NCBI RefSeq assembly: GCF_003790525.1
Contig: NZ_CP033635.1
Source: Escherichia coli
Lineage (GTDB): Bacteria; Pseudomonadota; Gammaproteobacteria; Enterobacterales; Enterobacteriaceae
Strand: one strand, 5' to 3'
Length of the DNA stretch: 64,000 nucleotides
The notes under the pieces are model-generated. The model searched no databases. It was not told the DNA's origin and was given only the letters and a program-made list of their open reading frames with translations. The position numbers and the translations under genes were made by a program. The first letter of the stretch is position 1. Each line of letters opens with the position of its first letter. This document shows positions 41,640 through 46,099 of this stretch, in pieces.

Positions 41640-42900
41640 TAATTGCCTGTTTTTGATATGTTCACTCCAACAACGGAGACAGGCAAACGATGGACGAAAA
41701 GAAACTTAAAGTCCTTGCGGCTGAACTGGCCAAAGGCCTTAAAACCGAAGCCGACCTCAACCAGTTTTCACGCATGTTGACAAAGCTTACCGTCGAAACG
41801 GCGCTCAATGCAGAACTGACTGACCATCTAGGTCATGAGAAAAATGCTCCTAAATCAGGCTCTAATACCCGTAATGGCTACTCGTCAAAAACGGTATTGT
41901 GCGATGATGGCGAGATCGAACTTAACACGCCGCGTGACCGTGAAAATACCTTCGAACCACAACTGGTGAAGAAAAATCAGACCCGCATTACCGGCATGGA
42001 CAACCAGATCCTGGCGCTGTATGCCAGAGGGATGACTACCCGCGAAATTACCTCAGCCTTCAAAGAAATGTACGACGCCGATGTCTCGCCCACGCTGATA
42101 TCCAAAGTGACCGATGCGGTTAAAGAACAGGTCTCTGAATGGCAAAACCGACCGTTGGATGCACTGTATCCCATTGTTTATCTTGACTGTATTGTGGTTA
42201 AGGTTCGTCACAGCGGGAGTGTCATTAACAAAGCGGTGTTCCTCGCGCTGGGCATCAATACCGACGGTCAGAAAGAGCTGCTGGATATGTGGCTGGCCGA
42301 AAATGAAGGTGCAAAGTTCTGGCTGAATGTACTGACGGAACTGAAAAATCGCGGCCTGAACGATATCCTTATCGCCTTCGTGGACGGCCTGAAAGGCTTC
42401 CCGGAAGCGATAAATAGCGTGTACCCGCAGACGCATATTCAGCTCTGCATCATCCATATGGTGCGCAACAGCCTGAAATTCGTGTCGTGGAAGGATTACA
42501 AAGCCGTCACCAGCGGGCTGAAAGCGGTATATCAGGCCCCGACAGAGGAAACGGCGTTGATGGCGTTGGATAAGTTTGCAGGCGTCTGGGATGAAAAATA
42601 CCCGCAAATCAGCAAGAGCTGGCGCACACACTGGGAAAATCTCAACACCTTCTTCGGTTACCCACCGGATATCCGCAAGGCCATCTACACGACGAATGCC
42701 ATCGAATCGCTGAACAGTGTCATTCGGCAGGCGATAAAGAAGCGCAAGGTGTTCCCAACGGACGACTCGGTGCGAAAAGTGATTTATCTGGCGATACAGT
42801 CGGCGTCAAAAAATGGAGTATGCCAATCCAGAACTGGCGGCTGGCAATGAGCCGTTTTATTATCGAGTTCGGTGACCGCCTTAGCGAGCACCTTTAATAC
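41640..42900 (+). mobile_element. IS256-family element, full length
   Basis: Left-end motif GTAATTGCCTGTTTTTGATATGTTC; single transposase gene. Confidence 0.7.
41690..42850 (+). pseudogene. IS256-family transposase with C-terminal frameshift
   Basis: 386 aa ORF, MDEKKLKVLAAELAKGLKTEADLNQF...; the expected C-terminal ...MPIQNWRLAMSRFIIEFGDRLSEHL is readable in another frame. Confidence 0.75.
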
Positions 42901-43213
42901 GGCGGCAGTTACACAGAATTATTTACAGGGTCATTCTGAATTTAGTGCAGAATTAAAATATGTGTTCAAAATAATTTAATTCAGACAGCTTTTTATTTCA
43001 CTATGGCTATCCCAGAACAACCAGTACAAATAATAAAAGACATATCACAGCAACACTCCACACTGACAGCGCAAAAATAAATGCCGCCTTTGTTATCTTC
43101 ATATACAAGCAACCTGTCCTGATAATCACCAGCTCATGTTTTATTCTTAACCATTCGTCACAAATACAACAAAAAATAACAGCAGCAGCACCGATATCAC
43201 AATATAAGATACA

Positions 43214-43669
43214 TTATTCAACACCTGAATCCCCCGCCGCTTCTCTCCCCTTTATAAAACGCCCCTTCCGGAATCCAGACCGCTGCAGTGCACGACGAAG
43301 ATGACCGTATACCGTCTTGTCATTCTGCCCCGTCTCTTCTGTAATCTCCGCAATACTTAAACCTCTGTAATACCGGTTCAGTACCGCTCTGCGCTCTTCC
43401 AGCGTCAACACACCTCCGGCCGCTCTCAGATTCAGCATCGACTTATTCAGAATACAGCAGGCCTCTCCGGTAAAAAGAATACGAACAATATCTGTATACT
43501 CATCATCACAGAATACAAAATAATATCTGAATGACCTGCCTGACTGCACCCTTCTTCTGTCTGATATGGCATCTTCTATATATCTGATTCGACTGCTTAC
43601 GGTTCCAAATATCTCTCGCAGGGCTTTTTCAAAATAAATATCTCTCGTCGCCAGGATTATATCCAGCAT
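43214..43669 (-). CDS. Small LuxR/GerE-type HTH regulator-like protein downstream of the adhesin gene
   Basis: 151 aa; C-terminal ...LTLEERRAVLNRYYRGLSIAEITEETGQNDKTVYGHLRRAL... resembles a LuxR-type HTH. Confidence 0.4.
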   Translation of the reverse strand: MLDIILATRDIYFEKALREIFGTVSSRIRYIEDAISDRRRVQSGRSFRYYFVFCDDEYTDIVRILFTGEACCILNKSMLNLRAAGGVLTLEERRAVLNRYYRGLSIAEITEETGQNDKTVYGHLRRALQRSGFRKGRFIKGREAAGDSGVE

Positions 43670-43730
43670 CTCTGTACCTCATTATATCCCGGGGGACTCC
43701 CCCCGGGACAGATATCTAAATCCTGACCTG

Positions 43731-45272
43731 TCAGAACTCAAAATTCACACCAGCATTCCACGATGCGGATGACCCACCTGCAGCAACTGCAACTTTTCCT
43801 GCCACATTCTCTGTGAAACGGTAGCCCACGCCCACCGCAATGGCCTGCTCATCACGGTAACCACCAACGGCTGCTGTCGCGTTAAATTTTCCAACACTGT
43901 ATGGCTGGAAAAGACCTGCCAGTGCCGCGCTCTGGGCTGCACTCTCCCTTAACTCCTTCCGGTTCTCTTTAATCTGCTCCTGCATATTATTCATTCTCTC
44001 TGTCGCCATCTTCTGCCAGGCTTCCGTCAAATCCAGACGATGACTGTTATTCCTTATCGCTGCTGTATTTGAGGCTATTGCTGCATCCGTCTGCGCCCTG
44101 TTCTTCACAAGCACATCGCTGAGATGTTCTGCCTGGCTTTTCGCTTCTTTACGGGCATCCCGTACACTTTTATCTGTATAAGCCCGGGAAACCTGAACTG
44201 TTTCATCCGCTTTTTCTTTTATTTCATCCTGAAGAGCAAGAGAAGATGCATCCGTATACGCCACCGCTGCCGATGTGCCTGCAATAATATCCCTGCTGAG
44301 TTCATCACGTACTGCTGTAACCTGACTGTCAGTATGAGCACGGGCATCTCTGTATACACCGCCTATCTCACCGCGCAGACTGTCTCCCTCTGCCTTCAGT
44401 TCATCACGTACTGCTGTGACCTGACTGTCAGTATGAGCACGGGCATCTCTGTATACACCGCCTATCTCACCACGCAGACTGTCTCCCTGTGATTTCAACT
44501 CATCACGTACTTTGTTCGTCCCATCCTTTATCTCATCCTGAAGTGCAAGCGCTGTTACATCTGTATACGTCACCGCTGCCGATGTGCCTGCAATAATATC
44601 CCTGCTGAGTTCAGCATGAACTGTTGAAAGACGTTTATCTGTCTCGTCAATTCTTTCATTCGTCTGCAACAAAAAGACCTGTGCATCATCAAATCGTTCA
44701 TTCAGTTGCCCTACCGTCGCTGCATCTGTGTTATTGATACCATCAGACACATTTATAATCCGGCGGGTTTCCGGTGCTCCTTTGACACTCTCTCCATATC
44801 CCTCAGGCCCGGCACCAACAGATACCACGTTATTTTCTCCCGACACCTGTGAGCCATGGCCCAGAGCTACAGAGCCTGAAGAATTTTCTATTCCAGCCCA
44901 TCCCCCAATAGCAACACTCTGCTGTGAATTAAGTACCTCAGCGCTCTTACCTATGGCAACACCATATTTTGACTCAGCCTGACCGGCATCCCTTCCCAGG
45001 GTGACACTGTGTGGAGAATTATACACTCCCGAAAAAGAGCCAAACTGAAGACTTCCTGGTGAATCCATGTTAAAAGCGCCACCTCCCAAAAGGAAAGTGT
45101 TATTAGCTGTACCAGTTGAATTCGTAATAAAAGAGTTTTCTCCAATCAGTAAGCTGGAAGAATTAGCATCAACAGGCCCTGTCAAAACAGCCTGAGCCTG
45201 AGCCGAGAGCAGCAGGGCCACACTCACTGCCAGCGCGCTTTTCTTTAAAAAAGCATCACGTCTTTTAAGCAT
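43731..45272 (-). CDS. Trimeric autotransporter adhesin (YadA-like; Saa/Eib-like)
   Basis: ORF 43731..45326; signal peptide from [28 protein letters not shown]; internal tandem repeats; C-terminal YadA-type anchor ...[31 protein letters not shown]. Confidence 0.75.
44313..44510. repeat. Two tandem 99-bp (33-aa) repeats within the adhesin gene, plus a flanking duplicated about 40-bp segment
   Basis: VRDELK(S/A)(Q/E)[25 protein letters not shown] twice; [12 protein letters not shown](T/A)YTD also duplicated on either side. Confidence 0.7.
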
Positions 45273-46099
45273 TCTGTTATTCTCCTGTATTATTACTTCA
45301 CCAGCCAGAACGGTAGTGCGGAGCAAAAATACAGTGATAAGAATCCTCTTTTATTAATTTAATAATGCCAGGAATATTATTGTGTATAATATGCGACCTC
45401 AATTTAAGCAGCAGAAAACGACTGGCATTAAAATCATTAAATTATAAACATATACAACTTTGTAAAGGTGGTTATAATAAACCTGATTACTTTAACGTCT
45501 GTATACCTGCACTGCTGATATCACAAAACAATAAAAATCCTGGTTAATATCTCTGATGATTGAATGAGAAATTCACGATGTCTGGTGAGAATTCTGTTCA
45601 AAACGAGGAATGCAGACGTACATGTGGCAGGCATGGACTTCTACCAATTTAACTTTTTTCCTTCCTTGTATTTACACATTGCACATTTTGCGCTACAAAA
45701 ATTTCACGTGGCACGCACCACGTGATCCGTAGAAAAGCCTCTTGTTACGAATTTCGTAAACCGCACGTCTGTCTGGTCGTGCGGATTTTTTATCCGTCAA
45801 CTTCACATGAAACCCGCCAGAGCACTGTTTCCGGATTCAGACATCAGGCATATTATCATCCACGATGTCGTGAACAAGATCACACTTTTGCAATTCCTTT
45901 ATTGATCGAAAGCAGTTAATCACGGAAATTAATTACCGGAGTGAAAGCATTACTGCATCGTAAATATCTACCATTTTTGACTACACCCTCTGACAGAATT
46001 TTCAGAGGGTTTTTTTATCAGTTTCACCATCCAACCCTGTACGCCAGAATGGTTTCACTGTCACTCAGTTCTGCTATTGCCTTTTTCATCTCCCTTTAC

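Follow-up and report, generated by a model that had tools for sequence, protein, structure and literature searches.

A trimeric autotransporter adhesin cassette of prophage origin with a candidate helix-turn-helix partner regulator in Escherichia coli

The 64,000 nucleotides of Escherichia coli DNA analysed here (the window; contig NZ_CP033635.1 of assembly GCF_003790525.1) carry a gene for a YadA-like trimeric autotransporter adhesin (TAA) and, directly downstream on the same strand, a gene for a 151-residue protein with a helix-turn-helix (HTH) motif. The best overall explanation of our results, to which we give a probability of roughly 0.55, is that both genes belong to a prophage-derived adhesin cassette in which the stalk of the adhesin is variable and the HTH partner would act back on the adhesin promoter(s). 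The cassette occupies ~3.1 kb of the minus strand, from position 46103 to position 42995, and contains three co-oriented genes, which encode the adhesin, the HTH protein and a tiny membrane peptide. Its parts are listed below in the order of transcription (loci of other genomes are denoted by L and a number).

46024..46103 (-): 3' relic of a DUF4376 tail-fibre-assembly gene at the upstream edge of the cassette; its encoded C-terminus is identical to that of the L007 protein
45273..46023 (-): AT-rich non-coding stretch 5' of the adhesin gene, the presumed promoter and control region, from cross-locus comparison
43731..45272 (-): gene for a YadA-like trimeric autotransporter adhesin of 513 residues, from the Pfam anchor, structure matches and RefSeq
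43670..43730 (-): adhesin-HTH spacer of 61 bp with two RNA hairpins, at 43715-43742 (across the adhesin stop codon) and 43685-43710 (GC-rich)
43214..43669 (-): gene for the 151-residue HTH protein, with a predicted receiver-like beta-alpha domain (residues 1-81) and four-helix HTH (residues 88-146), from Pfam, AlphaFold2 (AF2) and conservation
43007..43129 (-): open reading frame (ORF) for a small hydrophobic single-pass peptide, the last cassette gene, 40 residues from a GTG or 31 from the ATG at 43102
42995..43006 (-): 3' boundary of the block common to the prophage copies; homology to L007, L009 and L015 stops at 42995

The HTH gene is genuine, conserved and in close linkage with that of the adhesin. 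Of 5426 complete E. coli genomes, 183 carry it, at 288 chromosomal places and up to six times per genome, nearly always at a nucleotide identity of at least 99%, and the 3' end of the adhesin gene (at a coverage of at least 80%) is found in an equal number of genomes (183/5426). The adhesin 3' end occurs at up to eight places per genome, a count that includes Eib-like anchors at 60-90% identity, and in multi-copy genomes (e.g. GF60, LH50-c and TUM1886) identical copies of the HTH gene each lie beside a different adhesin allele. The 61-bp spacer separates the two genes in all 14 loci read, interrupted by an insertion sequence (IS) in two. In ten contigs picked for their dissimilar surroundings the spacer is identical in eight; that of L012 differs by two small changes, and an IS interrupts that of L015. 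All ten loci share a block that runs from within the adhesin gene to 42995, and the small peptide ORF, which lies inside the block common to the prophage copies, is intact in 10/10 loci with at most one residue changed.

A downstream ORF with an HTH on the adhesin strand is what an earlier note, made from the letters of the window alone (the original prediction), had proposed, and this is supported both by a Pfam HTH match above its cut-off (described below) and by the conservation of the ORF next to homologous adhesin genes. That note also allowed that the ORF might be spurious. A non-coding ORF at 43214-43669 would fit the outcome of two very large searches, covering 5.8 billion proteins (word-indexed) and 1.84 billion representatives (exhaustive phmmer), in which only near-identical copies and fragments of the 151-residue protein were found, and would also fit the predicted local distance difference test (pLDDT) score of only 37 obtained when AF2 was given the single sequence. 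However, 182 genomes hold the ORF in intact form, its ATG is preceded by a GAGG ribosome-binding site at a distance of 7 nt, the encoded HTH scores above a curated Pfam cut-off, AF2 yields a confident two-domain model when an alignment is supplied, and the product is remotely homologous over its full length to a family that is under purifying selection; we therefore consider it very improbable that the ORF is spurious.

RefSeq lists the 151-residue protein as WP_000884153.1, a 'sigma factor-like helix-turn-helix DNA-binding protein'. In Pfam, the strongest match is to Sigma70_r4_2, over residues 87-130 (30.9 bits, E 2.2e-7; cut-off 25.7), and several other HTH families match more weakly, while GerE (PF00196) and Response_reg were absent from the Pfam matches (GerE at E values of up to 1). 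An AF2 model based on a shallow, combined family alignment reached a pLDDT of 80.9 and a predicted template modelling score (pTM) of 0.74, with the topology b1-a1-b2-a2-b3-a3-b4(-b5) followed by four helices. The top whole-chain matches of this model in Foldseek, with moderate scores, are RcsB (E 1.3e-3), EvgA, FixJ and VpsT, and GerE is among the fold matches; structures of sigma region 4 match the C-terminal part of the model only. The protein is thus predicted, on the strength of the model, to consist of a truncated receiver-like domain and an HTH of the LuxR/GerE or sigma-4 type. This is the two-domain layout of NarL/FixJ response regulators such as RcsB and EvgA, and the Asp at the phospho-acceptor position is kept: D55, after strand 3, is nearly invariant in the family alignment. 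In contrast to those regulators, the protein is ~50 residues shorter and the acidic pair after strand 1 is replaced by T-R-N/D; the region of the strand-5 Lys and the last elements of the receiver domain are missing. We found no gene for a cognate histidine kinase in the cassette or in any context inspected. Given the degenerate acidic pocket, the missing receiver elements and the lack of a nearby kinase, we infer that the protein acts independently of phosphorylation.

Two other labels for the protein can be weighed against this description. The label 'LuxR/GerE-like', which the original prediction had given to the HTH, has only the indirect support of relatives and of the predicted fold for the 151-residue protein itself, in which GerE finds no match and which scores better as sigma-4, but is reasonable for its family, of which one relative scores 33.4 bits with GerE. 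The RefSeq name suggests instead an alternative sigma factor similar to those of the extracytoplasmic function type, or a fragment of one. Here only region 4 is matched (residues 87-130), region 2 was not detected, all NCBIfam sigma models stay far below their cut-offs (12-21 bits, where 43-350 would be required), the predicted fold of the N-terminal half is beta-alpha-beta and not the helical sigma-2 domain, and relatives of the protein score as GerE. A sigma factor is therefore scarcely credible as an identity for this protein.

The same gene arrangement is found at the loci of the immunoglobulin-binding Eib adhesins. We compared the eibA, eibC, eibD and eibE loci of the E. coli ECOR-9 prophages (GenBank AF151091 and AF151674-6), of which records AF151674 and AF151091 annotate the order eib, stem-loop, ORF-156 (156 residues), ORF-60 and then eaa. 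The Eib loci therefore share with the window the order of adhesin gene, stem-loop, gene for a protein of ~155 residues and gene for a small peptide with a hydrophobic tail, all on one strand; ORF-60 has a C-terminal transmembrane segment and occupies the position of the small hydrophobic ORF of the window, which itself has no family match (its sequence from the internal ATG is MKITKAAFIFALSVWSVAVICLLLFVLVVLG). Some alleles of the window family also share the prophage position of the Eib loci, after the genes for a tail fibre and a DUF4376 protein (ORF-191). The loci differ in that the partner proteins are only 22% identical, the hairpin of the window lacks the U-run of the Eib stem-loop and no eaa autotransporter gene follows. 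ORF-156C and the 151-residue protein are collinear (residues 2-133 against 1-145; BLASTP, 22% identity, E 4e-5), and their N-termini are strikingly alike (MLDIILATRDIYFEKAL and MKVILATRNRYLEYGL, respectively). When a profile of 18 ORF-156 relatives was compared with the 151-residue protein by hhalign, the match extended over 130 columns with a probability of 95.4% and an E value of 1.9e-8. In the PHROGs database ORF-156 belongs to phrog_6585, of unknown function, which the 151-residue protein matches via its N-terminal domain only (E 3.3e-4). Overall, these comparisons indicate that the 151-residue protein is a divergent, full-length remote homologue of ORF-156.

This homology bears on two earlier impressions. 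The original prediction had known of no partner of this kind for Saa or Eib genes, which is incorrect for Eib in view of ORF-156 but agrees with the blank tblastn search of plasmids with the 151-residue protein as far as Saa is concerned, the saa spacer not having been inspected for distant relatives. The impression of an orphan gene, given by the large protein searches and by the lack of any tblastn match on plasmids and phages at E 1e-3, was also rejected, as the ORF-156 relatives emerged from the synteny downstream of eib and from profile comparison and not from sequence searches. ORF-156 itself has 44 relatives (clusters), all from E. coli and 35-99% identical, of which the named ones are all 'hypothetical' and none has a Pfam domain. 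These relatives are under purifying selection, with ratios of nonsynonymous to synonymous substitution rates (dN/dS) of 0.10-0.18, and two of the three examined are found, in prophages and on an IncF plasmid, 82-86 nt 3' of genes for Eib-like adhesins.

More distant relatives of 155-160 residues are encoded near adhesins of other types. Those on plasmids are 31-41% identical to proteins of the ORF-156 family and match the 151-residue protein over nearly its full length (E 6.5e-8 and 1.8e-7). With GerE, the relative in L030 scores 33.4 bits, which is above the Pfam cut-off, and L031_160 scores 19.7 bits; RefSeq names several of these proteins 'LuxR C-terminal-related'. The L030 relative (4001-4471) is encoded on IncF plasmids directly 3' of a gene pair for a giant protein with GA domains and a protein with RTX repeats, the two L031 relatives (4001-4483 and 4505-5014) directly 3' of the gene for an immunoglobulin-like (Ig-like) protein of 1275 residues, and the L032 relative (1777-2253) 3' of a fimbrial gene that adjoins a pap operon.

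The cassette arose as a 'moron' that lambdoid prophages carried at their tail-fibre end, and in the window it is fossilised in an IS-riddled chromosomal island. At its upstream edge, positions 46092-46024 encode the C-terminal 23 residues and stop codon of a prophage DUF4376 protein (REMKKAIAELSDSETILAYRVGW*), identical to those of L007, and the homology to the prophage loci L007, L009 and L015 begins at 46103. Since the amino acid sequence of this relic is identical, the island copy is a fossil of the prophage cassette. Three unrelated kinds of context were found:

context 1: a carbohydrate-utilisation island with the order transketolase, phosphotransferase system (PTS), adhesin, HTH protein, MliC, NanE, PTS (strains BEN2908 and IMT5155)
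context 2: the end of a lambdoid prophage with the order J, Lom, tail fibre, DUF4376 protein, adhesin, HTH protein, DinI, integrase (L007, L009 and L015)
context 3: IS-rich islands (the window and strain F11)

In the window, the transketolase and PTS genes (46471-46647 and 46707-47398) are truncated by IS1, which makes this region a degraded copy of the arrangement in BEN2908 and IMT5155. Over 2.5 kb, the stretch with the adhesin and HTH genes matches the chromosome of CS5L, an isolate from chicken, at 100% identity; there it lies in an IS-rich island with an integrase, CbtA/YeeU, an AlpA-like regulator (annotated in CS5L as 'helix-turn-helix transcriptional regulator') and genes of similar kinds. 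The host of the island is an E. coli of a kind frequent among poultry and extraintestinal isolates, and the adhesin family is common in poultry-associated and extraintestinal strains, at up to six to eight places per genome in the 183 positive genomes. Published accounts of the tkt1 island (PMC3349570) and of IrmA/AGI-3 (PMC4807369 and PMC12928451) were considered as descriptions of this locus and rejected, as they concern other genes or leave the adhesin unmentioned.

Several features of the spacer bear on how the HTH gene is expressed. Its two hairpins have a minimum free energy of -35 kcal/mol (z -3.9) and neither is followed by a U-run. The GC-rich hairpin at 43685-43710 is a recurrent IS target: IS421 lies inside it in L015, IS421 is also found between the adhesin and HTH genes in F11 (L005) and GZ2408C, and IS3 and IS5 occur there in other strains. 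A consensus scan revealed no sigma-70-like promoter before the HTH gene. As the gene has no recognisable promoter and the hairpin no U-tract, low-level read-through from the adhesin promoter is the most likely source of its transcript. We propose that the HTH and small peptide genes would be transcribed at a low level by partial read-through from this promoter, that the 151-residue protein may bind DNA as a phosphorylation-independent factor similar to NarL/FixJ proteins, and that it would in turn act back on the adhesin promoter(s). As up to six identical copies of the HTH gene lie beside different adhesin alleles in one genome, coordination among cassettes is possible, and the protein could thus coordinate expression across the cassettes of a genome. 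The role of a dedicated regulator, which the original prediction had already considered for the ORF, is our inference from these features.

A number of observations weigh against this proposal. In L009 and L015 the HTH gene is identical even though the 5' end of the adhesin gene and the promoter-proximal region are different, which speaks against a partnership that is strictly specific to one promoter. No common operator-like motif and no candidate site emerged from a comparison of the upstream regions of cassettes with different 5' ends, which share only the relic of the tail-fibre gene and the adjoining sequence. In several genomes an IS separates the adhesin and HTH genes, both of which are intact, and the HTH gene, with one SNP in 14 loci, is too uniform for a direct test of selection. 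In the wider family, P0171 (164 residues; 4001-4495 in L018-L021; listed on 200 contigs) is encoded on its own beside hpaBC, where tblastn detected no adhesin remnant upstream, so that adjacency to an adhesin gene is not obligatory in this family. Finally, the stem-loop of the Eib loci has a U-run and looks like a proper terminator, which would limit read-through into ORF-156.

The main rival to feedback on the adhesin promoter is a regulator that is made together with the adhesin but acts in trans on other loci, such as flagellar genes or other adhesins. PapX and MrpJ, encoded at the ends of fimbrial operons, and MatA/EcpR, encoded within one, are regulators of this kind, which act on other loci and have demonstrated effects on motility. 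The analogy of PapX/FocX, MrpJ and MatA/EcpR with the cassette, a gene for a small DNA-binding protein in or at the end of an adhesin unit, is functional only, as PapX (of the MarR type), MrpJ and MatA presumably belong to protein families that differ from, or are very distant to, that of the 151-residue protein. A regulator acting elsewhere would explain why the HTH gene stands at the 3' end of the adhesin unit without a promoter of its own, why an identical HTH protein accompanies different adhesin alleles and even different promoters, and why relatives lie just 3' of genes for an Ig-like protein (L031), a GA-domain and RTX pair (L030) and a fimbrial protein (L032). The last point comes, however, from the three contexts without a TAA that were inspected, and the plasmid contexts H190 and H193 were too degraded or too sparsely annotated to extend it. 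We regard a role confined to other loci as unlikely.

The linkage could also be a matter of shared descent, with the HTH and small peptide genes as mere passengers, i.e. moron or accessory genes of a prophage that travel with the adhesin gene in a young, barely diverged block and would serve the phage or some other function of the host. The block from the 3' half of the adhesin gene to 42995 is ~99% identical everywhere and could have spread recently, its location, with the tail-fibre genes on one side and the attachment end on the other, is typical of a moron, a solo relative exists, and pairs separated by an IS persist. In contrast, the same order is kept in the Eib loci at only 22% identity between the partners and 40-57% between the adhesin C-termini, and an order that is kept despite such divergence argues that the arrangement is old and maintained. 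The purifying selection on the ORF-156 relatives and the recurrence of relatives beside unrelated adhesin types outside prophages also speak against passengers, which we thus judge to be rather improbable.

Feedback by the HTH partner on the adhesin promoter(s) is hence the reading that we prefer, and it has consequences beyond the window. The literature on EibG describes control of its expression by static growth, temperature and oxygen and names no regulator encoded at the locus (PMC4352079 and PMC5450701). We found no publication that links Eib with a LuxR-type regulator, the sole match being a paper on an Aeromonas hydrophila pathotype that is unrelated by its title and abstract, and no mention of WP_000884153 in the literature searched. 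Judged from its sequence relationships and predicted fold, the family of the 151-residue protein and ORF-156 is a candidate for the missing local regulator of Eib-type adhesins. ORF-156, deposited in 2000 and still 'hypothetical', in this way joins a 'sigma factor-like' protein in one family that is kept by adhesin genes across prophages, islands and plasmids. A more far-reaching and tentative possibility is that the 151-residue protein, ORF-156 and their relatives constitute a family of small E. coli regulators, as yet undescribed, that are of a receiver-like/LuxR type and independent of kinases. They would be hard-wired 3' of several classes of adhesin genes (for TAAs, Ig-like proteins, RTX/GA-domain giants and fimbriae) and made by read-through each time the adhesin is expressed, and might set a hierarchy among the adhesins of a cell, up to six cassette copies per genome among them, or switch off competing surface programmes. 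If true, this would amount to a general circuit in which an adhesin reports its own expression.

The adhesin gene at 43731-45272 appears to be real and to encode a fairly ordinary E. coli TAA of the YadA type, a new member of the Eib/YadA-like group. The ORF extends over 43731..45326 (-), and the true start is the ATG at 45272, which is preceded by an AGGAGA Shine-Dalgarno sequence and followed by a signal peptide; RefSeq, which names the product a 'YadA-like family protein', agrees with this start. The N-terminal Sec signal peptide, with an A-x-A cleavage motif, can be read directly off the translation. The YadA-type C-terminal anchor of the original prediction was confirmed by Pfam YadA_anchor (PF03895; 59.4 bits, E 3.7e-16, cut-off 22.7), and among solved structures the YadA anchor 2lme matched best (E 2e-17), ahead of fragments of SadA, of which those of the head and neck align at E 2e-8. 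Matches to the passenger stayed below threshold, with 24.7 bits for YadA_stalk at the neck (cut-off 28.4) and 14.3 bits for YadA_head (cut-off 25). The predicted arrangement of the domains is as follows:

residues 1-28: signal peptide
residues between signal peptide and neck: weak head repeats
residues 168-191: neck
residues between neck and anchor: repeat-bearing stalk
residues ~449-513: anchor

Within the region 5' of the gene (45273..46023), a hairpin lies at 45985-46010 and a site that resembles a terminator at 45704-45725 (-). The region is 92-98% identical among those island and prophage loci that have the same signal peptide, and a consensus scan of its minus strand gave no strong sigma-70 match.

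Comparison between loci reveals an uneven pattern of conservation along the cassette. Whereas the anchor half of the adhesin gene and the HTH gene are ~99% identical, the adhesin head (44716-45189) is ~74% identical or cannot be aligned. The signal peptide and the region upstream of it are again 93-98% identical, and the break with the variable head falls exactly at a (QA)n repeat, at 45189. In L009 and L015 the 5' end of the adhesin gene is different and the upstream part in common is limited to 45870-46103. The adhesin is accordingly best described, from these alignments, as a mosaic with a hypervariable exposed head.

Alignment with the named adhesins showed that the protein is neither a Saa nor an Eib allele, with which the original prediction had compared it. 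It is 25.5% identical to annotated saa over 71% of the query and ~24% identical to yadA (both from plasmid records). Against the phage records of EibC and EibD only residues 299-488 align (37.5%), with a longer match to EibC over residues 299-513 (39.6%), and against EibA the identity is 57% over the last 90-120 residues (residues 396-513). The crystal-structure fragment of EibD gave no match to the window adhesin at E 0.01; a prophage-borne allele of the adhesin matches the EibD structure weakly (E 5e-7). The NCBIfam model YadA_autotrans matches the adhesin in part, at 77 bits against a cut-off of 750. The adhesin therefore seems to represent a separate lineage that is Eib-like only in its C-terminal stalk and anchor: both it and the Eib proteins are TAAs of the YadA type and are 40-57% identical in this part, but they share no relationship in the head or in most of the stalk. 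Saa, the autoagglutinating adhesin of Shiga-toxigenic E. coli encoded on plasmid pO113, is likewise a TAA of similar size. The length of Saa varies among strains with the copy number of its repeats. It differs from the window adhesin in its repeat unit and in being plasmid-borne, whereas all places found for the window family are chromosomal. The anchor of Yersinia YadA is clearly homologous to that of the window adhesin, even though the overall identity is ~24%; YadA is under the control of the plasmid-encoded VirF and is not known to have a small regulator gene adjacent to it.

The adhesin family carries no name in the literature searched. A preprint of December 2025 (bioRxiv 10.64898/2025.12.25.695649) describes new EibG-like lineages of E. 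coli, Cla (ClaA and ClaB) and Yal, which have distinct genomic contexts and do not bind immunoglobulin G, and the window family could coincide with one of these lineages, to judge by description only. In the main text of that preprint the word 'regulator' does not occur, and 'downstream' is used only of fluid flow and of 10-kb gene-context windows.

The stalk contains two nested sets of repeats, and a third, short repeat lies at the end of the signal peptide:

44313..44510 (-): two tandem 33-residue (99-bp) stalk units, residues 255-287 and 288-320; Tandem Repeats Finder (TRF) period 99, direct repeats 95% identical
44215..44320 (-): outer duplicated segment, distal copy, residues 324-352; 106-nt direct repeat, 86% identical to 44524-44629
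44524..44629 (-): outer duplicated segment, proximal copy, residues 221-249; 106-nt direct repeat
45189..45204 (-): in-frame hexanucleotide repeat that encodes (QA)n in the cleavage region, where the signal peptide ends; TRF period 6, 2.7 copies

The 99-bp period was reported by TRF as 2.2 copies over 44299-44511. The original prediction was right about the two 33-residue tandem repeats, but they are not 'perfect', as it had called them, since they differ at 2/33 residues and 5/99 bases. The second duplicated segment that it had noted is likewise present, as the 106-nt direct repeats that flank the tandem array on both sides; the encoded segment (29 residues) ends in LALQDEIK. Its expectation that such a structure would vary in length by recombination was borne out in 90 full-length adhesin homologues, which contain 0-4 copies of the 33-residue unit:

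0 units: 410 residues, with a single outer segment and everything between the outer duplicates lost
1 unit: 480-484 residues
2 units: 513-519 residues, including the window allele
3 units: 546-550 residues
4 units: 555-557 residues

The protein search also returned many E. coli adhesin clusters, named 'YadA-like family protein' or 'immunoglobulin-binding protein', whose lengths differ in 33-residue steps. The joins can be followed at the DNA level: L010 and L012 have extra units, and in L013 the two outer repeats are fused and the array is lost. The predicted variation in stalk length is thus real, and recombination or slippage among the repeats has given rise to alleles with 0-4 units. As 33 residues correspond to three 11-residue repeats, and the repeat region has a sub-threshold Pfam match to Apolipoprotein (an 11/22-mer), gain or loss of a unit should preserve the coiled-coil register while altering the length of the stalk and the reach of the head. 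The number of QA dipeptides is 2, 3 or 4 among the homologues. A hypervariable head together with changes in stalk length by whole units bears on antigenic variation and on any use of the adhesin in vaccines.

The cassette is flanked by mobile elements, of which the nearest lies downstream of it:

41619..42931 (+): IS of the IS256 family in which the transposase is frameshifted, with its inverted repeats at 41623-41647 and 42904-42928

The original prediction had IS256 elements bracketing the adhesin region. Instead, there is a single element, with its two inverted repeats on one and the same side of the adhesin module, and no IS256 end was found in the window to the right of 42931. A 9-bp target duplication (CATTCTGAA) borders the element, at 41610-41618 and 42932-42940, and BEN2908 has the empty site, in which 41541-41618 is contiguous with the sequence from 42932 onwards with a 9-bp overlap. 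It is therefore a simple insertion, 282 bp 3' of the HTH gene and outside the cassette, and is also annotated in CS5L and F11. A 20-nt inverted match between 41541-41560 and 46446-46465 was considered as a second IS256 pair and rejected, since BEN2908 identifies 41541-41618 as native sequence that continues from 42932. On the other side of the adhesin gene lie an IS3-type remnant, the truncated transketolase gene and IS1. Two further partial copies of the IS256 family, at 21532-22340 (85% identity to the element at 41619-42931) and at 10863-11087 (74%), lie at a great distance from the adhesin gene. No transfer RNA gene was found in the 64-kb window, and two Rfam families scored above their gathering scores, a group II intron catalytic domain at 17590-17676 (+; 64 bits) and the Hfq-binding small RNA STnc490 at 22584-22705 (-; 134 bits).

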